Assembly (NCBI GenBank): GCA_010015805.1
Contig: ML978130.1
Span: 310,001-374,000 of the forward strand
DNA from: Rhizodiscina lignyota
Taxonomy: Eukaryota
DNA length: 64,000 nucleotides
Direction of reading: 5' to 3'
Part shown: one piece after another, positions 2,178 to 63,189 of the stretch
Layout of the letters: each line of letters starts with the position of its first letter
Numbering within the stretch: position 1 is the first letter of the stretch
Notes under the pieces: generated by a model
What the model saw: the letters and a program-made list of their open reading frames with translations, nothing else
Told to the model about the DNA's origin: nothing
Databases searched by the model: none
Translations under genes and position numbers: made by a program

Positions 2178-3559
2178 TTAGATCTCATCTTCGCAGACGA
2201 CGAGCTCCTTGGACTGCTCCTCCACTTCGGCTTCAACCACCTTCTGCTTGCCCTTGCCACTCTCCTTGGCGATGGCCTCGAGCTTGGCGCGGGGAGACGG
2301 CACCGCGGGGACGGCAAAGTCGAACTCCTTGGACAAGCCAGACGGCTTCTGTGGAGAGAATGGAGATAGAGAGGATGGAGTGGACACCACTTCTGCGGGC
2401 ACGACGACCTTAGAGGACTCGTTCAGGCCCTCATCGTAGAAGTCCTCCACGTTAAGCTCACCGAGGGGGTTGCGATCTTCGAGCATCGCGTCGGGGTGGG
2501 CATTCCTCTTGGCTCGACGAGTGTTCCTGGCATTCGCTCTCATGGAGGAACTTGGACGAAGAGCAGGAGTTGCAGTGACATCCTCGGCGATAACGAAAGT
2601 GGTGGCACGAATGATCTCGGCAGCAGTCATGTTGAGGAAATTCGGCGGCGGTGGAATGTTCTCCTTGCCGCGCTCACGCATCTCCCTCTGACTGCGAGTG
2701 AGCATGTCGTCGTCAGAGCTAATGTCAAGGGTACTAGCGGAGTGCTCCATGAGGTTAGCAGCTTCCTGATCGGGTGTGTCTTCGTGGATGCTGAAGAACC
2801 AGGTCTTTGGCATGTGTTCGACTGGGTGGACGTCGACGACAGGAGCTGGAGGTGGAGCTGGTTCAGAGACAGCAGCAGGAGCAGACTTTGGCGTGTAGCC
2901 GGTGATGGTGCCCTTAAGAGCCTCGTCGATGGAGAAGGGAAGACCTGTGGGGGTGCTGTTGAAGGTAGGAGGATCGATGCGGCGGAAGGGAGAAGAAGAG
3001 GCACGGCGGTTTTTGTTGAGGATGCCTACGCGCTTGTGCTTCGGAGATCCGCGGCTCGCAGAGATCGGAGTGGTGGTTGTAGTGTTTGGCACAGAGAGGG
3101 AGAGCGGCTTCTTAGAGATCGAAGTGGCTGCCTGGTTGACTAGATGCAGAGTGCCTTTCTTAACCGGGGGAAGGTAACCTGGAGCCTCAACGATGAGGAA
3201 CTTGGTCTGCTTGGAGCGCTTCGAAGGTGAATTGAAGACTTCTGGGTCGAGATTCTCCGCGTCGTCGAAGGTGTCCTCGATCGAAGCGTCGGAGAACGTA
3301 CGCTTGCCGGGAGAAGAAAGTGCCTGCTTGGAAGCTTGAAGAGCGGCAGTGATGGCTGTGCAATTTAAAGTAAGCAATCGTTTTCAATTCACGTGTCACA
3401 TTCTTGAAGTGGGTCAAATGTTCAAGTGGAGTATCGTGAAGTGCTGAATAATCAGTCTGGTGGTTGCATACAGTTCTGAGTATTCTTCACGCTGCCCAAC
3501 TTCTGCAAGCGAGTGGAATCGAGGGCAGCAAAGGGCTGCCTAGCCTGAATAGCTGCCAT
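2178..3559 (-). CDS. Conserved fungal disordered protein with ABBA, KEN and D-box motifs; probable Acm1-like APC/C inhibitor
   Basis: Exon 1 3559..3472 (MAAIQARQPFAALDSTRLQKLGSVKNTQN), intron 3471..3356 (GTATGC...CACAG), exon 2 3355..2178; motifs FSIHED, GKENIPP, RNPLGELNVEDF and several S/T-P-x-K/R sites. Confidence 0.8.
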
Positions 3560-3629: not shown

Positions 3630-4290
3630 AAAACGCGTCAGTTTGGCGGTCAACGTGTTTGTTGACTCTCTTGTGTTGACGCTGTGTTACTTGGAGTTGG
3701 GAGCGAGGAAGGTTTTCACAGAGTGTGTTGGTGAAGCCAAAAGAACGAAAGCAAGAGCAAACCAAGATGCTGTGAAGCTCACGATGAAGAGGTAGAAGAA
3801 GAGGGGAAGAGGCTCAGCAGGGCAAGGGAATTTTAAGAGGGTGGTTTGCTCCGCGGTGGGTGGCCCCGGCACGCCCTGATACGGCATTAGAGGGCGTCGA
3901 CGCGCCTCCACGCGCTGCTCCGCGTCGAGGCCGCGTCGAGCCACTCCCGCCCGCGATTTCGGCCAGGGCAAAGGCCTGCTGCTGCCGTGCTAGTCCATAT
4001 ATAGCCGGAATGCACCTCAGATAGTCAGACTGTGCCATGGCAAGGCCCGTTCCCACCGGATCGCCGCTGCACTGTGAAAGCAGAGCTGCATCACGCTTCA
4101 CTGCCTCAGGCAGGCCGTTCGAAGCCACGCTTATCCCTCTGGCCCGTCTGGGGAGAAGGCCGTCAATGCTCCCCGAATCATTGGACGAGAGCGCCCGGCG
4201 TTGCACGCGTGGGGCTGAGCTATTTGCGAGGCAATTGAAACGCGCCGCGGACGCGTTCGTGGGCCGAGGGCGCGACGTGACGAGCGCGTG
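3630..4290. promoter_or_regulatory. Cluster of MCB-like (ACGCGT/CGCG) elements in the divergent promoter
   Basis: Exact ACGCGT at 3633, 4205 and 4251, plus about ten further CGCG cores between 3850 and 4290, in GC-rich non-coding DNA. Confidence 0.55.
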
Positions 4291-38397: not shown

Positions 38398-41300
38398 ATG
38401 GAGCTCATTCCAATCGCGTCTCTCTCACCCTCCCTCGCGTCCCTAGACACGAAGTCTATACGCGCCATTGTCACCCTTATATGGCCGTACTCGTCATCTA
38501 CACGTAGTGCCGCCCTGCTCCTCGCTGAGCCCGACTTCCGTCTCCGTCGAAACAAAGGGCAAGTGCGCGTATTACTGAGGGGTGCAAGCGCGGCAGCTGT
38601 TGCCAAAACCCAGATTGGCATCGGAGATGAGGTCATCCTGGGGTTGGACGGAGCACGATGGATAGCAGATGCTGGAGCTGAGGAGGTGGTAAGGACACCG
38701 GGGAAGAGTGTGGACTGGGAGCTTCAATTCGAGAGGAGAATCGTGCTTCAGGTATGTATTTTACTATTTACGAATGAGGCAGGAATGGCTGATGCCGTTG
38801 GCATAGATATCTCGAGACTCGAAAGAGCTCACTTCTCTCGACCTGGCCAGTTCTTCCCCGAGCCCTCCGCCGGAGCGACCTCATATCGACTCCGTCGAGA
38901 CACGTGCCTCTGCTCCCGGCCTCTCCACACCCGCACCTGTTGCATCTGTTCCTATCGGAGGAAGCTTGTGGCAAGATTCGCCCTCTTCGGTCTTGTTCAA
39001 GCGCTCGCGACTCTCAGGAGGCAGCCTTACATACTCTCCATACGACCCATTCGCAGAGGATGGAAGACGGGCAAAGAAGCGACAACGCAGAAGCTGGATG
39101 GAGGTTGGCTCATGGAAGCTCTCAGACCGGACACCATCTCCTGAAAAGGATGATGGCCGGTCAGTCAGTGATGTTGATCTGAGCGACTCATCCGATGAGA
39201 AGGATCTATCACCTCAAACCGAACAAGCGGCATACGAGACTCCTATATCAGGCAACGAGGCCTCCGTTCAGAGCGACGTCATTATTGATGCGGGGCCAGC
39301 AGACGATGGACTGTCAGCGGACGAACAAGTGCCAGGAAAAGAAGCAATTCCAGCGGAGAGGGTTCTATCATCCCAGGCGATACAGGCTCAACACACCCAG
39401 GAAATCATAGAGATGGTTGCTGGGGACACGGAGCCAGAGACGGATATAGATGCTTCGGAAGACGATTTTGTCGAGCATCAGAACGAGTTGCATTTCGATG
39501 CAGTACAACAGTCGTTTCAAGATGACAATGAAGGACATATGGAGGAATCAAATTTCGACGCTTTCGTAGATGTCGAAGCGGAAGAAGTTTCTGAACGGGC
39601 CATCAGATTTTCTGAACATCCCTCTGATCTCGATGAGAATGATTATGATGAATTCTCCCAAGAATCCTATTCTGAGATTTCGGACGACCAGGACAGCGAG
39701 GAGGATGAATTGGAGGAAGCTTCGCAAGATCAAGACATGATTAATCCGGAGGCCGTCCAATATGCTGTCCCTCCTGAGAGAGTGCAAGGCTCACAATTTC
39801 AGCCAATCGTTCTTGGCGATACTCCAGTCAACAGCGATAGTGATTCTGAAGAGGAAGGGCTACGAGAAGAGGAGGAGGATGAGGACGAGGAAGTGGAAGA
39901 CGATGAGGACGAGGAGGAGGATGAGCTACAGGAGGAGGAGGAGGACGAGGAGGAGGAGGAAGAAGAAGAAGAAGAAGAAGAACATTGGGAGATGGAAGAG
40001 ACCAGTGGTATGCATCATGCTGAGATTCCGGAAACCCAGCCTGAAATCAGTGCCCAAATACCCCAAGCGTCTACTACTGAAGAATCACAGTATCCGTCAC
40101 TTCCAACAACCTTTGATGGACTGATGCCACCTCCTTCACTGCCGGCCCTCCACACGCCAAGCCCTCTGCTTCCTATAAGCGATGCTCGAGCGCCAACACC
40201 AAACAGGAGTCCGGATCAACCAAAAACTCCGGAGTTACAGCCGGTTTCTTCGACCATGCTGCCACTACCATCGCCATTTCCTGGGGCCAACGATACTACT
40301 CCACGATCATATTTCGACGGGTCCGGAAGACTCGAAGACTCAAAAGAGCGCGTCATCGATGAGACGCAGGCAATCTCCAACATTCCACACACGATGGAGT
40401 ATACCAGCCCAAAGCTTGATGTACCGTCAACCAAAGATCGGAGGAAGAGATCATCATCGTCCGCATCTCGGCTCAGTGAGATCGGCCCTTTTGGTGAACA
40501 CTTTCGCGCAAGGCATCCGTTCGGCATGGATGGCTCCTTTATGTCCAGAGAAGATGCCATAATGGACGAGCCAACACTTGAATCATTCGAGGAAGTCGAA
40601 CATATTCCACACTCTCTGAACGACATCACTTCTGGTCGTCACAAGAGCGCCACCCCCGCTATTGAGCCTATGCAAGATCTCCATTCGGAGCCCATTCCTA
40701 ACATTGAGCTTATTCCACAGGATGTTTCGAGGGAAGAGGCCATTGGAGATGAGCCCTCTCTTGAATCGTTCGAGAAAATTGAAGAAGTTCCTTATACCTT
40801 CGATGAGATTGGATCTGGTCGTCATAAGAGCATTACTCCCGCTACTGAACCTACGCAGGATCAGCATGCAGAACACATGCATGATGTCCAGTATACTCAA
40901 CAAGAAAATTCCCATACTCCTGAAATTGAAACTCAACACGATCAACATTTGGAGCCCATTCCTGACATCGAACATACTCAACAAGAAGATTCACACACTC
41001 TTACAAATGAGCCTACGCCCGATGAGCATTTGGAACACATCCCTGACATCCAGTATACTCAACCGGAAGATAGCCAGCCTCAGTGGGAGCCGGATGACTG
41101 GTTTGAGCCACCGTCTGGCGATTTCGATGCCGTTCCAGTTATGCCCGAAGATGTGCTTTCAGACGAGCCGATTCCGCGAGAGTCGACATTCCCAGGACCG
41201 AAGGAAGATATCGAATTCGATATGGCTCCAGATGTGCAATATTCAGACGAGCCAGCTCCGCAGGAACAGAAGATCTTTGAGTCCACGGAAGAACCACTAT

Positions 41301-43339
41301 TGGACATGGCCCTGAAGAAAGATGTTCTTGAGCCGAAACTTCTTGATCTGAAGGAGGAATTCGAATTGGACGTGGCTCTGAAGAAGGATGCTATGGAGGA
41401 CATTTCCATGGAAAAGTTCGCTGTGGAGGCCGTCCCCTTGGAAAAGATCGCTCTGGAGGCTACCTCTCTGGAGAAGACCCCTCCGAAGAAGGGTGCTCTT
41501 CCGCCCCCTAGTACGTGGGCAACTGACATTATTGACCTTGGCAGTGGAAGTGAAGGAAGCGAAGAGGAAGAAGGTGATGACATGGCAGTTGAAGCTCCCG
41601 TATTTACTCAAGCTTCTATTGAGCTGGGCAGCACTCCTGGATTTCGAGTCAACGCTCATGACGGCACTGCTGAGCAAGGAATAACAGAGTCTCAGAAGAG
41701 TAGGTTTTTGGGGGTCACCGTTATCAAAGATTCTGAAGAGGGCAGTGTTAATTCAGACAAGTCAATTTCGACGATTCCTGAATCACCGGACGATGAATCT
41801 CAAAGGAGGAGGGACACGAACAAGGATATTGCCCAGACGGCTCAATCCGATGAAGTGGTGTATCCGTCGCTGCCTGAATTGGGTACACAAGAGGAGCTGA
41901 TTCACATTGAAAAATCTACCGAGATGAGCCCGCTATCCGACGTCGTTGGAGAGTTCGAAAATGATCATTCACGTGTCAAAGACCATTCCACACATGAGGA
42001 AGTCCAACCCCCTTCGAGTTTATCCCCATTACCGAACACGACTCAAACTTTGATGCAGCAATCCCAATCACAGCCCCTCTTAACACCTTTCTCTCAGCAA
42101 ATCGAGTCGCAAATTGACCTCGATGGGACCACCCCGGAAATGGTGGAATCTTCCATGACTGAGCAGCACTTTGTATTTCCAGAGTATACTTCAGCGGAAC
42201 ACGACAGCGCGCCTCCTCCGACCCCTTCATTCACACAGCAAACTATGTATCAAGATTCGGCGGACGCTGTCGGTGACCCCTCAGTCACAACTCAAAGCAA
42301 ACTGAAGAAGAAGAGAGAAAAGAAAAAAAAGGCCCGAAAAAGTACGGTCCCTGATGTTATTAGTCAATGGTTTGCGCCGAGCCGAGCCAGCCTGCAGGCG
42401 ACAGAATCCGAGTCAGAATCCGATGAAGACGGGGATAAGGATGAGGATGAATATACAGATGCGGAGGCGGCCGAAAGCCAGCTGCTCAAGGAACAAGCTG
42501 AAACAATCCAAGAGTTTTCCACGGGTTCTGATCTCGCGCTCATCGAAGAGGCGAAATCCAAGCTGTTCGCCATGACCGAGGCAACAGCCGAAGAATTACA
42601 GACGCAAGCTTCACGACCTACGACAGCCGAGAGTCAAGCCAGCGGAACTCGTTCGGTGCCACTCGGCCTGCGAACACCTCTGTCGTATTATACACCGCTT
42701 CATCCCACGCGCCTCAGACCATTACTTAATTTCTCCGCTTCCCAGCACACGTCGTCGCAAGAGGGCACGATGGATGTGATCGCAATAGTGACCTCTTCTG
42801 CAAAGGCACCTCAGCGCGCCGATAAGGGACCAAGGGACTGGAACACAGTCTTCCATATTGCCGATCGAAACTCATGGGCCTTGAAGGATACGGAAGAGAG
42901 TGAATGGCCCAGCGGCGATGTTCAAGTGCAGTGTTTCATGGGTGGCAACTCCGGGAAAGACTTGCTGCCGACTGCTGACATTGGGGATGTCGTGCTGCTG
43001 AGGGAGTTTGGGGTAGTAAGCCGCAAAGGAAAGGTCGGGTTGATCAACAAGAGTAGAGGAAGTGGCTGGTGTGTCTGGAGGTTTGGCATCTCGAATGTGG
43101 CAGTAAGCGGAACCACGCCTGATTCAGAGAAACCCATCTGGGCCCGTAAAGGCGCTGTGGTTGGTCACGGAGGCGAGGAGTCGTCCGATGCTCGGCCGAT
43201 AGAAGAAATGAAAGGGGCCCCTGTTGAGATTGAGGATGAGGAGAGAAGGGAGGCCATGCGAATCCGACGGTGGTGGGAGTCCGTCCCAAAGGATGAGAAG
43301 CGAGAAGTCCAATATGGGTCTCAAGCTCAGTTGCCTTGA
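38398..43339 (+). CDS. Large acidic protein with N- and C-terminal OB folds (POT1/Cdc13-like ssDNA-binding)
   Basis: N-term AIVTLIWPYSS...LLAEPDFRLRRNKGQVRV...IGIGDEV; C-term LRTPLSYY...DVIAIV...GPRDW...LPTADIGDVVLLREF; intron 38752..38805. Confidence 0.8.
39865..39981 (+). repeat. GAG/GAA trinucleotide tract encoding poly-Glu/Asp
   Basis: (GAG)n interrupted by GAC/GAT, followed by a pure (GAA)n run. Confidence 0.9.
40541..41070 (+). repeat. Internal coding tandem duplications (183-bp unit x2, then ~27-29 aa units)
   Basis: SREDAIMDEPTLESFEEVE...SGRHKSATPA vs SREEAIGDEPSLESFEKIE...SGRHKSITPA (TCTGGTCGTCA at 40631 and 40814); then H.EHMHDVQYTQQENSH / HLEPIPDIEHTQQEDSH / HLEHIPDIQYTQPEDSQ. 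Confidence 0.85.
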
Positions 43340-45766: not shown

Positions 45767-46167
45767 GCGAAAGGCAGATGCCGCTCATAGAACACCTGCA
45801 TTTCTGAATCAACTGTGACTGGAAGTCTGTGATATTCGCCATTCACTGGATGGATGGTTCGATTATGTGCTATATTAAGCCATCACACCTTCCCGCGCAA
45901 CACGGCAGGGACCTACCCGATATGGACTTGACCAGCTGCGCAACCATTCTTTCTTCTGTTTTACCAGATCTCGCTTTCATTCTGCCTTCGTTCCAATTCG
46001 CCATTTATCCCTAGATACTGTCCAAAAGCGTTCAAATCTGTTCATATATTGTTGGTCCATTCACGGAAGAGATGCCATGACCCATGGGCCACCAAGGGAA
46101 CAAGGCAATGGTGGTAGCCCGCTGGAAAGCGGGGTGTGGCGACGAAAACACTTGGGCTTAAGGAGCC

Positions 46168-49100
46168 ATGGCGCGTTCGAATTACTTGTACGGCAGCACC
46201 ATCGGTCCGGAACCTCGCTCAGGAGTACGGATCAGAGTACCAAAGGCTAGAGCCGGGCCTCCACCGCCGTCACTGGCCAGCGACAACGACGATGATCCCC
46301 ATCTCTCATTCAGCCGTCGGCGACATGTAAGAGAGTCCACGCGCGGTATCTATGAGGGCAGCAGAGGCCGCCGACACTCTTATCCGCTATCAGATACTCC
46401 CGTGAGCCGACCATTTCCGAATCGGACGTCGTTGCCAAATTCGCCACCGACACGGCAACTTCCGCGATCCGCACTACGTCCTGTTCCCCATGGCAACAGC
46501 GACAAGCCGAAAACCAAACATGCAAAACGTGTCACCTTCAATCCAATTGTTGAATTTGATGACGATATCAAGATGGAACCCGATACAAGCGATCAGGGAA
46601 GTTGCATCGACGATGGAGAAGGGCTGGCCCTGCGTATGCCACAAGACGATGAAGAAATCACGAGACGCAGAAAGGGACGGCCCAATGTGAGATTTGAAGA
46701 TTGTAGTGATGACACCGGAAGTTTGATCGACTCGGGCTCCGGCGAAGTTCTCAGACCTCCAAGAGGTCGCGAAGGGTTGCGTCAAGTCTGGTCAAGTTCA
46801 CTGCCAGAGAAGAAGAGGAATTCGCGATCAAAATCTCCGCCGCGCTCACCATTCAAAGCAGACTCATCAATCAAACAATCTGCCGCAAACAGGATGAATG
46901 ACGAAGATATTCGCTCGGCGCTGAAAGAAGACGTCCGTCACGCCCTCACCGAGGTAAACGCAAGGGCATCATTGATTGGTGGAAGAGTGGATGGGGAAAG
47001 CCAAAGCGTCATCATTGCGACCGGACCACCAAAGCTTAAGGGGATAATCATCGAGGGAAAAGATGGAAGGAAAATCGTTATCGGCCCTACCAACATGCCT
47101 CCTATGCCGACTCGGCAAACCTCCTTCGGTGGGAGTGCAAATTCTTCTCGAGTACAAAAGCCCGTGTTCGTGAGGAAAGCTGTGAAGGCGCCATCAGCAC
47201 CGAAAGAACCACCCAAGGAAGAACCTGCTGTAGAGAAGAAGAATGTGCAGCCAAATATGAAACTCCCAGAGACAATCGTGAAGAAGAAACAGATCATCAC
47301 GGCAGAGGAGGAGAAGTCGCGAATATTGCTGTTTCCTAAAATAGGCCGGCCAGTTTCTAAAACTCCCAAGCCTGGACTGCCACTTTCCAAGAAGAGGCCG
47401 GTAGCCCCGCCATCTAAGCTAAGTAAGCCACCTCCGCCATCTTCTCAATCTTTATCCAGTGTTACCTCTTCATTAGGTTCGTCATCGTCGTCGTCTGGGA
47501 GCTCTGGCTGGCAAGTACCAAGGAGCGATCTATTCAAGGAGTCGAAAGATGGTGGCGAGAAACCTGTGCCTCTCCCCTCTAAGCCTGAACCTCCCAGTCA
47601 GGGTAAAGAAGGGAGCAAGAGCAAAAGCAAAAGCAAAAGCCCCACACCACCAAAGTCTCGATCAACATCCAAATCTAAACGGTTGCTGAACCGTTGGCCT
47701 TCGCCCGCTGGACTGCCAAGTCTGCCGGTGCCGGTGCAACCCTCACATCTACCCACACCACCGCAGAATTTGGGTCTCGCAGCCGTCCAGAGCTGGGACT
47801 ATCAGCCTGACGTACCGGTTTCAGGAGCAGGCGAGGGTTGGTCTGCCAAAGTTCCGCCAGATAAGAAGTCGTCTTCATCCTCCACTACTTCTTCCTCGAC
47901 TTCCGGGGAGGCCAACCGCCACAGTGCATCCTCTGGCAACCACTCCGTGCACTCAAATGAGCATTGGATGTCCGGGGCACTTCCGGCTGCCTCACTTGTT
48001 TCATCATCGAGCTCATCCGCAGCTAGTACGGCGACCGTGAAGCCTCCAAGTTCTGAGACACGACGTCGCATTTCAAAGGGTTTCCGACATGTCGCCCCTC
48101 TCACACATCCGGCACAGAAGCCAGAACAAGTACACACTTCAAGCGGTAGCAAATACCAGGAAAGCCGCCAGTCAAGGTCGTCTCGGCGATCGAAGAAGAC
48201 CGATCGGAGTGCCATCCCAACTGCTGAAGGCAGGATTGTGCCCATTTTTGAGGCAGTGGTACCTGAGATCCTTGTCTCACCAGTGAGTGGCTATGCACCT
48301 AGTTCTAATTATCAACCGCCGACCGTCGAGAGCGATCGTACGAGTCAGAGCTCACGGCGCTCAAAAACCAAGACGGACTTGCGATCCAAGAATTCGCTAT
48401 CAGATGATGGTCCCATCCTGGAAGAGATGGCCACGGCCCAAGATACGTTGATTGTACCAGATCGTGGTGGTGCGAATGCGAAGCAATGGGATCAACCTGC
48501 TGAAGAGGTCGGATCGCGAAAATCGAAGAAGTCGAGCGAATCTCGCAAGAATGTCCAGCAGAGTCATGGTGACGGAGCTGAATCAACATGGGATCAATGG
48601 GGCGAAACAGCTCAGGATACTCTCTGGGACAAGCAATCAGGCTCATCAGAGACATCGTCGAAATCCAATAGCACCGTGAAGGCTAACGAAGCCGGCATGA
48701 CAATTACGGAACAGCGACTTCCAGGTGGGCAGGATCGAGAATCACGAGAAGCAAGATCCAACTCTTCGAAGAAATCAAGCAAGTTCGAACGAAGCGCAAA
48801 GGAAAGCGATACTGTTGCAGCACCTGCCTGGGAGCTACAAGAGCCGCTCGGAGGTGGCCAGGAATGGGAGGTGAGGTCGCACCACTCTAAGGAGTCATCC
48901 AATTCGCGCAAGTCGGGTAACCAGCTTAATACTGCCCCAAAATGGGGCGTCTCGGGCAATAACGACGTCGGTGATGAAGCATTGAAGGCCGGCTCCGGCG
49001 ACCCCAGGAAATCAGAGAGCAAGCCACAGAAGTCGACCTCTAAGACCGAAATAATTTCCAACACCAACTCGAAGAAGAGCAGCAGCAAGAAGGCGAGCGA

Positions 49101-49170
49101 TGAAGAGCCCGTATATCAATATCTGCATGGTGTCATTCCGGTGCGCATATCGCGCAGGCGTTTGCATTAA
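46168..49170 (+). CDS. Hypothetical 1000-aa disordered Ser/Pro/Lys-rich protein
   Basis: Uninterrupted 3-kb ORF; no recognisable folded domain. Confidence 0.8.
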   Translation: MARSNYLYGSTIGPEPRSGVRIRVPKARAGPPPPSLASDNDDDPHLSFSRRRHVRESTRGIYEGSRGRRHSYPLSDTPVSRPFPNRTSLPNSPPTRQLPRSALRPVPHGNSDKPKTKHAKRVTFNPIVEFDDDIKMEPDTSDQGSCIDDGEGLALRMPQDDEEITRRRKGRPNVRFEDCSDDTGSLIDSGSGEVLRPPRGREGLRQVWSSSLPEKKRNSRSKSPPRSPFKADSSIKQSAANRMNDEDIRSALKEDVRHALTEVNARASLIGGRVDGESQSVIIATGPPKLKGIIIEGKDGRKIVIGPTNMPPMPTRQTSFGGSANSSRVQKPVFVRKAVKAPSAPKEPPKEEPAVEKKNVQPNMKLPETIVKKKQIITAEEEKSRILLFPKIGRPVSKTPKPGLPLSKKRPVAPPSKLSKPPPPSSQSLSSVTSSLGSSSSSSGSSGWQVPRSDLFKESKDGGEKPVPLPSKPEPPSQGKEGSKSKSKSKSPTPPKSRSTSKSKRLLNRWPSPAGLPSLPVPVQPSHLPTPPQNLGLAAVQSWDYQPDVPVSGAGEGWSAKVPPDKKSSSSSTTSSSTSGEANRHSASSGNHSVHSNEHWMSGALPAASLVSSSSSSAASTATVKPPSSETRRRISKGFRHVAPLTHPAQKPEQVHTSSGSKYQESRQSRSSRRSKKTDRSAIPTAEGRIVPIFEAVVPEILVSPVSGYAPSSNYQPPTVESDRTSQSSRRSKTKTDLRSKNSLSDDGPILEEMATAQDTLIVPDRGGANAKQWDQPAEEVGSRKSKKSSESRKNVQQSHGDGAESTWDQWGETAQDTLWDKQSGSSETSSKSNSTVKANEAGMTITEQRLPGGQDRESREARSNSSKKSSKFERSAKESDTVAAPAWELQEPLGGGQEWEVRSHHSKESSNSRKSGNQLNTAPKWGVSGNNDVGDEALKAGSGDPRKSESKPQKSTSKTEIISNTNSKKSSSKKASDEEPVYQYLHGVIPVRISRRRLH

Positions 49171-60675: not shown

Positions 60676-63189
60676 ATGCCTGAAGCATATGAAGAGATTT
60701 GGCAAGACGCAGACGATGAAAACTCTACACCCCGAAAGTACCTCAATCTGTGTGACAGCTGCCAAAATATCATGACCAGTCCAACGAACATCAAGCAACT
60801 CAAGAGTCAAACGGGCCTTCGACTTTGTTCGGGATCACAAGAGGTGTCAAATTGTGCCCTCCGCGCCATTGCTTTGGAGAGTATCGGTGTCTTCAATGCT
60901 CGTCACCCTGGTCATATCAATCAAGATGATGACGGTGTCGTGAATGTGTTTGGGAGGAAACTCGGGAAAGGCGTCGAATGGTATGACATTGACACGTTGG
61001 AGCTGAGATACTTCCGCGAAGACTCGTCCGGCTTGAGGTTCACTCCGCTGTTGGAATTCGATGTTCTCGCTTCGCCAGGTATGACTTTTGCTCTTTCGCC
61101 TACAGCGCACCGAGGGCGACCGAGCTTCCACTGAGAGCAGTTTAATACTTCTCCATGCATTTGGTGTTGAACGGAGTCCATTCATCTGCGTCAAACTTGG
61201 AAATTCAGATGCGCAGCGACTTCGGCTTGCATCTGTCGGGCTACTCGCACTAGTTATCCATTTCACGCTCATCTATCCCCCTTAGCGCTAGACGCATTCC
61301 CAGTTTTAGGAAGGGCTAGGTGCCAGTACTCCCGTGATATGGGTACTTCTGTACCGAGGGCTGGGGGTACTTCTGTACCGATGCCGGGGATGCCCTAGCG
61401 CTCAGAGGGATATTCCTTATAGTATATATCGATTCCGGTTCATGTTTCTGAAGAAAGAGTATTTGGAACTCCGCGGCTCATATGCTCCCCTTTCTGGAGG
61501 ATGCACCTGTTTTGAAAGGGGCTGTGAATCCCACTCACAAAGGCGGAGCATGTGCGCGAAATACGTGCTGCAAACATGACGATGCCTCATACATGCTGAT
61601 TGGCTTGACGGCTACTTAAAACACGATGCAAACATGTCGCTGATGACCTCTGTACAGATGATCCAGCGGCCGAATACATAAGCACGCGACCACCGGAGCT
61701 GAACATGCTCTCCGAGCAATCTTTCAATCGCATCAAACGTTGGATCACCGACTGCGAGAAGAACCATATAAACTGTCCAGCACCTTCAGCAGCGACTCTT
61801 CCGACACGGGTTATAGATGTCGGTGTCCTTGAACAAACGCAGATTGCCCGGGTTTATGAGACCGCTCATGAGAATGGCAGGTATGTAGCATTGAGCTATT
61901 GCTGGGGTGGCCCGCAGATGATAGCACTTACTACCGCAACACGATCTCAAATGGAAAGGGGTATTTGTATCTCAAGTCTGCCGAGGACGTTGCAAGATGC
62001 CATATTCATTACGAGGATGCTCGGACTCCGATATATCTGGGTCGACTCGATGTGCATCATCCAAGATGACCCAGCAGACAAAGAGAAGGAACTGAAGGCG
62101 ATGGCGCAGATATATAGAGATGCCTTTGTCACCATCTCTGCCGCCAGTACAAAGAGCTGTCAGGATGGTTTCCTGGCGAGGAGAAAGCCAAAGGCGTCTC
62201 ATTATCCGCGGTTCACTCTACCGTACTGTGCGTGGGACGATGAGTCAAAGATTGGTAGCGTCGTTCTGCAACAGCAGTTCTACCATGACTTTCTTACCGA
62301 ACCCATAAACAAACGGGCGTGGACTCTGCAGGAACGACTGTTGAGCCCGCGAATCCTCATATACGGTACTCATGAACTCTGGTGGCAATGTCAAGCTGAG
62401 CAGCTTAGCAACGGCGGAACAGGCAAGTTCTACGATCCAGGCGCGGAACGTCTCTTGTCAGCCTTCTTCCAGCATGATAAGGAGACATTAACACACAAAG
62501 AGTGGTGGTACTCTTGGGTCGATACCGTAATTGACTACACGCACCGGGAGCTCAGCTTCGAAGAGGATAAGCTAGTCGCGATATCCGCCATTGCCTCTCA
62601 GTTCCAAGCCGTCCAGAGCAACGACTACCTCGCCGGATTATGGAAATCAACTCTGCTGATGGACCTCACGTGGATGATCGACCCATCAAAGAGTCAGCCT
62701 CTGAAACCCCGACCATCTAAGTATGTGGCTCCCTCTTGGTCATGGGCCGCTGTGCAGGGAACAGTCTCATTTGCCTCATCCTGGAGCTCGGAGAACGAAG
62801 CATCATATGCGGAAGTGTCGCGATGCGAAACCACCTTGTCAACTAATGAGCTCCCGACTGGTAGAGTCACTGCTGGCTTTTTGGAGGCTCGAGCAAAAGT
62901 CAAAGAGGCGAGATGGAGATCACGAACGACCGACCTGCTCGATTATGAACCTTATGATCAGTCCAAAACAATTGGCAGGGCCTGGATGGACGCAGAGGAA
63001 GAGAAGCCAGAGAGACTCTTTTGTATCAGACTCGAGCGGAATGTCGGGCTTATCGTGACAGAGCAGAGTCCGTGTGTATTCCAGCGAGTGGGCTTCTTTG
63101 AGATAATTGGAGAGTCGAGTGAAGAGAGCGTTGCTCTCACGGATAAATGGTTCGAACAATGTGACACGCAGATAATTACGATAATTTAA
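60676..63189 (+). CDS. HET-domain protein (TOL/HET-6-like architecture)
   Basis: Exon 1 60676..61078, 579-nt intron, exon 2 from 61658 (DPAAEYISTRP...LPTRVIDV...YVALSYCWG...YIWVDSMCIIQDD...RAWTLQERLLSPR...YLAGLW...APSWSWA). Confidence 0.92.
61276..61410. mobile_element. 135-bp MITE-like element with imperfect ~25-bp TIRs and TA duplication, inside the HET intron
   Basis: TA|TCCCCCTTAGCGCTAGACGCATTCCC ... GGGGATGCCCTAGCGCTCAGAGGGA|TA; internal direct repeat GGGTACTTCTGTACCGA x2. Confidence 0.65.

Follow-up and report, generated by a model that had tools for sequence, protein, structure and literature searches.

A triple-degron protein family of Pezizomycotina as a candidate regulator of the anaphase-promoting complex: an Acm1-like layout in Rhizodiscina lignyota

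Budding-yeast Acm1 is a pseudosubstrate inhibitor of Cdh1, a coactivator serving the cyclosome, or anaphase-promoting complex (APC/C); it is the described protein closest in layout to the product of a gene that we analyzed in Rhizodiscina lignyota. The gene occupies positions 2178..3559 of a 64,000-nucleotide stretch (NCBI GenBank assembly GCA_010015805.1, contig ML978130.1, positions 310,001 to 374,000 of the forward strand), which is called the window below; coordinates are those of the window, and all features of the gene lie on its minus strand. According to He et al. (2013), the A motif of Acm1 (also called ABBA motif) covers residues 61-70 and is followed by a helix to residue 80, and residues 61-80 suffice for Cdh1 binding. 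The same source lists NEN at 90-92, KEN at 98-100, a cyclin-dependent kinase (CDK) site, the destruction box (D-box) DB3 at 119-127 and a 14-3-3 site, finds 15 residues between KEN and D-box to be enough, and assigns the N-terminal D-box DB1 to use by Cdc20. Glu65, at position 5 (P5) of the ABBA motif, pairs with Lys333 of Cdh1 and confers Cdh1 specificity (a review and He et al., 2013), and the Acm1 "D-box extension" (DBE) is reported to make Acm1 an inhibitor and not a substrate.

For filamentous ascomycetes, Paolillo et al. (2018) state that Emi1, Acm1 and Rca1 have no obvious homologue in Aspergillus nidulans, and the role of a Cdh1 inhibitor is therefore unfilled there. The window gene belongs to a family in which ABBA motif, KEN box and D-box follow one another in this order, near-invariant across the subphylum Pezizomycotina. 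Judged from these motifs, the protein very probably docks on an APC/C coactivator, and the family is a good candidate for an APC/C regulator of a kind that filamentous ascomycetes are thought to lack.

The degron cassette and its conservation

The cassette opens with WFFSIHED (2778..2801), in which the ABBA motif F-S-I-H-E-D (2795..2778) stands after a near-invariant Trp. It is followed by TPDQEAANLMEHS (2706..2777), which by conservation and by the AlphaFold2 (AF2) model consists of a post-ABBA helix and then the acidic/Ser cluster LDISSDDD. The KEN box (2666..2658) lies within GKENIPPP (2646..2669), with Pro at +2 and +3, and RNPLGELNVEDF (2439..2474) holds the D-box and, at its positions 11-13, a conserved [DE]-[FY]-Y extension. 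All three degrons lie where a preliminary description of the gene, made from the DNA letters alone, had put them; the 12-residue D-box string quoted there extends to 2439, and RNPLGELN itself covers 2474..2451.

Motif statistics were gathered over 552 non-identical family proteins, of which 539 were testable for the ABBA motif and 529 for the D-box. F-x-I-[HY]-x-D is present in 534 of the 539. Among these 534, P1 is always Phe, P3 is Ile in 530, P4 is His (439), Tyr (91), Arg (3) or Phe (1), P5 is Glu in 446 and Val in 56, with Val in Eurotiales members, and P6 is Asp (527) or Glu (7); the Trp two residues before the motif is kept in 526. KEN occurs in 552/552 members; 532 of them have Pro at +2 and 549 at +3, and in 548 the Lys follows G, D or N. 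The D-box R-x-[PA]-L-[GAS]-[DE]-[LM] was found in 528/529: P1 is Arg in all 528, P3 Pro (429) or Ala (92), P4 Leu (523), P5 Gly (349), P6 Asp (246) or Glu (239) and P7 Leu (368) or Met (154), and the extension has Phe (369) or Tyr (153) at P12 and Tyr (434) at P13. The acidic cluster, as LD[IL]S[SD][DE], is shared by 536/552 members, and its L and D are invariant in family alignments A2 and A3. Mean column identity of the family alignments is 22-23%, and ABBA, KEN and D-box are their best-conserved columns. In a 59-sequence alignment of representatives mostly <55% identical to one another, the invariant columns are K, E and N with a following P, the D-box R and L, the L-D of the acidic cluster and one Ala.

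The distance from ABBA to KEN is fixed at 38-46 residues (median 43), and that from KEN to the D-box ranges from 24 to 72 residues. In the AF2 model, ABBA (187-192) is immediately followed by a predicted helix (194-205), and the block that contains it has the best predicted local distance difference test score (pLDDT, 88) of the whole model. The consensus given in a review is RxxLx[D/E][hydrophobic]xN for the D-box, a preceding Asp/Asn and following prolines for KEN, and Fx[ILV][FY]x[DE] for ABBA; by sequence comparison, the positions that vary inside the family motifs, P2 and P5 of ABBA among them, and those that stay invariant are the ones this consensus predicts. In 200,000 composition-preserving shuffles of the window protein, a strict ABBA, then KEN, then R..L..[LIVM] appeared 22 times, with KEN alone in 8.7% of shuffles and R..L..[LIVM] alone in 22.7%.

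An initial relative search returned 324 relatives, of which the best 120 were listed: these are from Dothideomycetes or carry no taxon name, apart from one row from a bacterial metagenome-assembled genome (MAG). A profile search of 1.84 billion cluster representatives gave 590 matches at E≤0.001, 253 of them at E≤1e-30, with the best 150 of the 590 listed. Name look-ups and two further searches located members in Sordariomycetes, including Neurospora crassa NCU07771 and Chaetomium thermophilum CTHT_0050460. Members are also present in Eurotiomycetes (Onygenales, Aspergillus including A. fumigatus, and Penicillium), Lecanoromycetes, Lichinomycetes, Geoglossomycetes and Coniocybomycetes, and further family locus tags are PTRG_10864 (Pyrenophora), CHGG_10777 (Chaetomium globosum) and SNOG_10964. 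No named member from outside Pezizomycotina was found among the matches listed. By sequence, this is apparently a single family that spans Pezizomycotina. The ABBA-KEN-D-box order, for which the preliminary description had proposed an alignment of orthologs, is kept across the subphylum, and conservation is centered on the motifs. The MAG row (P0072) is a family member filed under Terriglobus roseus, which suggests that fungal DNA was binned into the bacterial genome.

The gene encodes a 421-amino-acid product, from an ATG at 3559 to a TAA stop at 2180..2178. Exon 1 (3472..3559, 88 nt) is separated from exon 2 (2178..3355, TAA included) by a 116-nt GT..AG intron at 3356..3471 (GTATGC to CACAG). 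The deposited R. lignyota model (P0003, partial) has the same exon junction and is identical to the 421-residue product at 333/347 aligned positions, the remaining 14 being one 13-position gap and one adjoining substitution. This model, which is shortened at its 3' end, excises a 39-base GT..AG stretch (2513..2551, minus strand) and thereby turns 14 residues of the variable KEN-to-D-box linker into one Thr; the frame is open through the stretch, and 39 bases are very short for a fungal intron. A Pfam scan of the exon-2 product gave 0 families at E≤10, and the AF2 model, built on a 66-sequence alignment, has a mean pLDDT of 56.4, a predicted template modeling score of 0.22 and short helices only. 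On these two results the protein is predicted to be disordered and to lack an enzyme fold, as the preliminary description had it. Charge is laid out unevenly along the chain: the N-terminal half is basic (net +7), the C-terminal half acidic (net -12).

Proposed coactivator docking and competing explanations

From the order, spacing and conservation of its motifs we infer a disordered cell-cycle protein whose docking site would be the WD40 propeller of a coactivator of the APC/C, with Cdh1/CdhA as the likeliest one. Three linked elements would take part: the ABBA motif with its adjoining helix, the KEN box at a fixed distance, and the D-box with its conserved extension. If all three degron sites were filled simultaneously, substrate recruitment would be blocked in the manner of a pseudosubstrate, after the example of Acm1, and the outcome would be inhibition over turnover. 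CDK phosphorylation of the basic N-terminal half may protect or localize the protein, and an N-terminal D-box-like block together with an xEN box (both described below) might permit its own timed destruction. By analogy, an Acm1-like pseudosubstrate inhibitor of Cdh1 is our tentative reading, held with a confidence somewhat short of even. A more elaborate form of it is more doubtful: a stoichiometric inhibitor of Cdh1 (CdhA), analogous to Acm1 or very distantly orthologous to it, whose cassette would clamp the propeller and whose N-terminal degron set would hand it to Cdc20 for anaphase destruction.

No WD40 gene is present in the window. Cdh1-type genes were taken from metagenome contigs by a short degenerate pattern, and an uninterrupted open reading frame (ORF), L080:314-1804, was chosen for comparison. 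It has a full-length PF24807 match, a C-box and an IR tail, and in the PDB sequence set its scores against FZR1 and against yeast Cdh1 exceed those against Cdc20. Read by hand, the alignments indicated that it keeps the equivalents of yeast Cdh1 I311, K333 and P374, whereas human FZR1 has Ser and Ala at the equivalents of I311 and K333; this is a point in favor of the Acm1-like reading. A second Cdh1-like ORF, L012:254-2296 on a 65.9-kb metagenome contig, carries a Ser/Pro/Leu-rich propeller insertion of ~45 residues that splits its PF24807 match in two and may represent an inserted loop or an in-frame intron left unspliced.

Several points weigh against inhibition of Cdh1 in the manner of Acm1. 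Paolillo et al. (2018) report that deletion of pucA, encoding the cyclin PucA, is lethal in A. nidulans and is rescued by deletion of cdhA, and conclude that no redundant route suffices to inactivate CdhA; the family protein therefore cannot be a strong independent inhibitor. An Acm1-like inhibitor that needs CDK for its stability would fit these genetics. ABBA, KEN and D-box also occur together in true substrates, cyclin A2 being an example, so the layout alone does not show inhibition. Lysines are present on both sides of the degrons in the window protein, and nothing in the sequence thus forbids ubiquitination. At least four further conserved blocks lie outside the cassette and the protein is twice as long as Acm1, so that APC/C docking may merely regulate another function. 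P4 of the ABBA motif is mostly His, and the [FY] of the review consensus is matched strictly only by the Tyr forms. On the receptor side, L080:314-1804 comes from a metagenome contig and is placed in Ascomycota only by its nearest Atlas cluster, and the second ORF has Ala at the K333 position by hand reading. Finally, the Acm1 chain was not matched at E≤10 in PDB sequence searches with the family profile, a window segment or a 56-position profile of the ABBA-helix-KEN region; of entry 4BH6, only the Cdh1 chain was seen among the matches listed from this sequence set, in which the Acm1 chain of 4BH6 is expected as well.

The strongest competitor, which we consider possible but rather unlikely, is a true APC/C substrate with its principal function in another process; the conserved N-terminal blocks might, for example, act in chromatin, cohesion, CDK or phosphatase regulation. 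Its degrons would only time its destruction, and the ABBA motif would allow degradation early or in the face of the spindle checkpoint, as in cyclin A2. Cyclin A2 is a substrate in which D-box, xEN/KEN and ABBA are combined. The N-terminal APC/C-binding region of cyclin A (Pfam Cyclin_N2, PF16500) and Clb5 resemble the family in having a disordered region that unites ABBA with a KEN-type box and a D-box, and Cyclin_N2 gave weak matches on the ABBA block in 5/59 members at E≤10 and 3/59 at E≤0.2; the best E was 0.018, all matches were under the curated cut-off, and this was the sole Pfam signal at the ABBA block. The five or more additional conserved blocks outside the cassette, the available lysines and the A. 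nidulans genetics, which shows no redundant CdhA inhibitor, likewise favor a substrate. Against it, the ABBA-to-KEN spacing is fixed and both helix and D-box extension are conserved, traits of the high-affinity simultaneous binding of inhibitors, and the Pfam scans revealed no enzymatic or known binding domain that points to another function. Cyclin A is a substrate, the family protein has no cyclin box, and the order of motifs differs. The cyclin A2 D-box precedes the ABBA motif. This D-box (D1) is described as 41 residues distant from ABBA.

An improbable alternative to Cdh1 inhibition is an inhibitor or competitive substrate directed at Cdc20, like Mad3/BubR1 (ABBA-KEN-ABBA) or fission-yeast Mes1. 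The family protein does carry two degron sets, an N-terminal D-box-like block plus xEN and the C-terminal ABBA-KEN-D-box followed by a second ABBA-like motif, and these might engage two coactivators. Mes1 is ~100 amino acids long. Published accounts describe BubR1 as blocking two Cdc20 molecules with two copies each of KEN, D-box and ABBA, and the pseudosubstrate KEN and D boxes of Mes1 as arranged like those of Acm1; our family would share with these proteins the multivalent engagement of coactivator propellers by pseudosubstrate KEN, D-box and ABBA. The replacement of Glu by Val at ABBA P5 in Eurotiales (56/534 members overall) would also agree with a Cdc20 target. P5 Glu, which specifies Cdh1 in Acm1, is nevertheless retained in 446/534, and the C-terminal ABBA-like motif falls outside the consensus, mostly with Trp at P4 and Ser at P6. 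Pfam detected no TPR/Mad3 domain (Mad3_BUB1_I) in the window protein or in 59 members, and unlike Mad3/BubR1 the family protein has no Bub3- or kinetochore-binding element.

Conservation of the motifs for a partner other than the APC/C, with a coincidental match to the degron consensus, is still less probable: short motifs are degenerate, as the shuffle frequencies of KEN and R..L..[LIVM] illustrate, but three independent motif classes with the right variable and invariant positions, flanks and order, conserved over >500 sequences, and the rarity of the ordered triple in shuffles argue against it. That the protein is the filamentous-ascomycete securin, which is disordered, inhibits separase and is degraded by way of its KEN and D boxes, is hardly credible: the family shares with it disorder, a basic N-half and acidic C-half, KEN and D boxes and conservation confined to the subphylum, and a protein-atlas hit (rank 12, score 0.78) to an Ascomycota cluster with 55% of members carrying Pfam Securin was a lead only, whereas Cromer et al. 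(2019) name XP_001225358.1 as the C. globosum securin (the family member there is CHGG_10777, XP_001226044.1) and place the KEN and D boxes of Pezizomycotina securins N-terminally, the degrons of our family lie in the C-terminal half with ABBA present, Pfam Securin (PF04856) matches 0/59 members at E≤10, and the F-x-I-[HY]-x-D variation fits ABBA and not the separase-inhibiting patch of securin with its invariant pseudosubstrate Glu.

Sororin was considered and rejected. Vertebrate sororin, whose Schizosaccharomyces pombe counterpart is Sor1, is a cohesin protector with a KEN box and an APC/C substrate in telophase and G1, and it resembles the family protein in being disordered with a KEN box. 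A C-terminal motif in which conserved Phe residues follow a K/R cluster defines the Sororin domain; the tail of the window protein is acidic (...ELVVCEDEI) and lacks this pattern, and in the tail of PTRG_10864, from Pyrenophora, a K cluster is present with no Phe downstream of it. A 2024 paper describes an uncharacterized Pezizomycotina family that is matched weakly by a Sororin-domain model and proposed as a sororin relative; look-ups of the accession it gives, XP_001941430.1, yielded no link to PTRG_10864.

To the filamentous ascomycetes belong A. nidulans, the main model of the fungal cell cycle, and most of the molds that infect plants or serve industry, and a subphylum-wide, near-invariant triple-degron cassette offers a concrete gene for genetics, for example NCU07771 or the Aspergillus orthologues. 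If the family does inhibit Cdh1, filamentous ascomycetes would have an additional layer of G1/S control, and multi-degron pseudosubstrates would either arise repeatedly or persist past recognizable homology. If it is the missing Cdh1 inhibitor, Acm1-type control would be a general property of ascomycetes rather than a peculiarity of budding yeast. If it is no more than a substrate, the protein would still offer a clean natural case in which ABBA, KEN and D-box cooperate with fixed spacing.

Other conserved blocks, annotation and surroundings

The N-terminal conserved block RQPFAALDSTRLQKLGSVKNTQN (3473..3541) opens with a D-box-like R-x-P-F-[AG]-x-[LVI] that has Phe at position 4. R-x-P-[FL]-[AGS]-x-[LIVM] is found in the first 45 residues of 321/519 members that start with Met, with Phe (313) and only rarely Leu (8) at position 4; RL..L...KN continues the block in 269 of the 321, and columns 12-34 of alignment A2 are nearly invariant. 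It is followed by ENLDP (3243..3257), a KEN-like "xEN..P" box in which the residue before E is variable. EN[VILMF][DE]P occurs in 440/552 members, and in alignment A2 the E, N and P are each kept in 58/58 sequences with a residue there; a box without Lys, "DQEN", is reported to be functional in cyclin A2. PFSIDEAL (2916..2939) has a short predicted helix (142-147 in the AF2 model), and PFS[ILV][DAE] is shared by 475/552 members. At the other end, LVVCED (2187..2204) is a C-terminal ABBA-like motif that reads [FI]-x-[ILV]-W-E-S in most relatives. It was found in 273 of the 339 members with a tail long enough (columns 821-826 of alignment A2), with Trp (239), Tyr (18) or Phe (16) at position 4.

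The window protein contains 13 [ST]P sites; across the family the median is 9, with 2 full [ST]P.[KR] sites. SPSK (3219..3230) is a full CDK consensus site that adjoins a basic KRSK cluster, and the surrounding F.SP.K[RK].K block is conserved (columns 142-150 of alignment A2). Further CDK sites lie inside basic clusters in GSPKHKR ... RRASSSPFRRIDPP (2985..3047), where G[RK]SP is present in 339/552 members and columns 346-388 of alignment A2 are conserved; the RRxSxSP found there would fit a 14-3-3 or basophilic-kinase site. RQPFAALD, ENLDP and the putative CDK sites SPGK, SPSK, SPFR and SPQK, which the preliminary description had listed, were every one recovered in the window protein.

Among the matches listed, members are named "hypothetical", "uncharacterized" or, by propagation, "Thymidylate kinase". 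The last is the UniRef name in 27/120 rows of the initial search and in many rows of the later ones, in agreement with the preliminary description, according to which homologs are often labeled hypothetical or thymidylate kinase although there is no P-loop here. We rejected this identity: the window protein matches 0 Pfam families at E≤10, no kinase family was detected in the 59 members scanned, and no fold is predicted. Correction of the widespread mislabel is one outcome of this work. Stray labels on other members are "RNA helicase" and "Atrophin-1 multi-domain protein" (P0249 and P0394). NCU07771, CTHT_0050460, PTRG_10864, CHGG_10777, SNOG_10964 and XP_001226044 are not mentioned in the literature searched (supplementary tables lay outside the search), and literature searches by topic turned up nothing that describes a family of this kind.

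A profile of the TCVLDIS...GKENIPP block (2646..2735) weakly matches ubiquitin residues ~12-40 across many ubiquitin entries. The match was taken as chance: the best E, to polyubiquitin, was 0.0037, but each single domain gave E ~5. A match to the NADH dehydrogenase 24-kDa subunit in the PDB sequence searches (E 0.57-1.2) was likewise regarded as chance.

Upstream of the gene, ACGCGT (MluI-box-like) sites are located at 3633..3638, 4205..4210 and 4251..4256, at most ~700 bases from the ATG and one of them 74 bases upstream of it. As sequence matches the three sites could hint at G1/S transcription; over the whole window ACGCGT is not enriched (11 against 10.7 expected). No cell-cycle-related gene was found among the annotated neighbors in the window. 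Most of these are housekeeping genes (PfkB kinase, phosphatidylserine decarboxylase, MFS and UNC-93 transporters, dephospho-CoA kinase, amidohydrolase and M24 peptidase), and a gene with a HET (heterokaryon incompatibility) domain lies at 61609..63189 on the plus strand. Two long open frames on the plus strand, 38807..43339 (1510 codons) and 46162..49170 (1002 codons), matched no Pfam family at E≤1e-5.

Comparison with budding-yeast Acm1

The preliminary description had called the protein a filamentous-fungal counterpart of Acm1. The architecture supports this in part, with additional Acm1-like traits, but no sequence relationship appeared in the PDB sequence searches, and "counterpart" can therefore only mean analogue at present. 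As far as sequence comparison goes, the resemblance is one of architecture and not of demonstrable descent. The protein is not to be filed as an Acm1 family member; it would, at most, work like Acm1.

The two differ in several respects. Saccharomyces cerevisiae Acm1 has 209 amino acids against 421 in the window protein, and its KEN-to-D-box linker is ~20 residues against 24-72 in the family. P4 of the family ABBA motif is mostly His, unlike that of Acm1, and the family has extra blocks, namely the N-terminal 23-residue block, PFSIDAAL, LDISSDE and the C-terminal FxIWES.

The likenesses are more numerous along the cassette. As in Acm1 (structure 4BH6), the family protein is predicted to be disordered and has the A-motif/ABBA, then KEN, then the D-box in the same order, with a helix directly after ABBA that is predicted here by AF2. 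Glu occupies ABBA P5 in 446/534 members, the residue that gives Acm1 its specificity for Cdh1. The ABBA-to-KEN distance is 38-46 in the family and 37 in Acm1 (F61 to K98), and the KEN-to-D-box distance is never <24, where 15 suffice in Acm1. The N-terminal D-box-like block may parallel DB1, but its position 4 is mostly Phe. A possible 14-3-3 site and sites for CDK are common to both by consensus only, and the conserved [DE]-[FY]-Y extension after the family D-box may correspond to the DBE described for Acm1.

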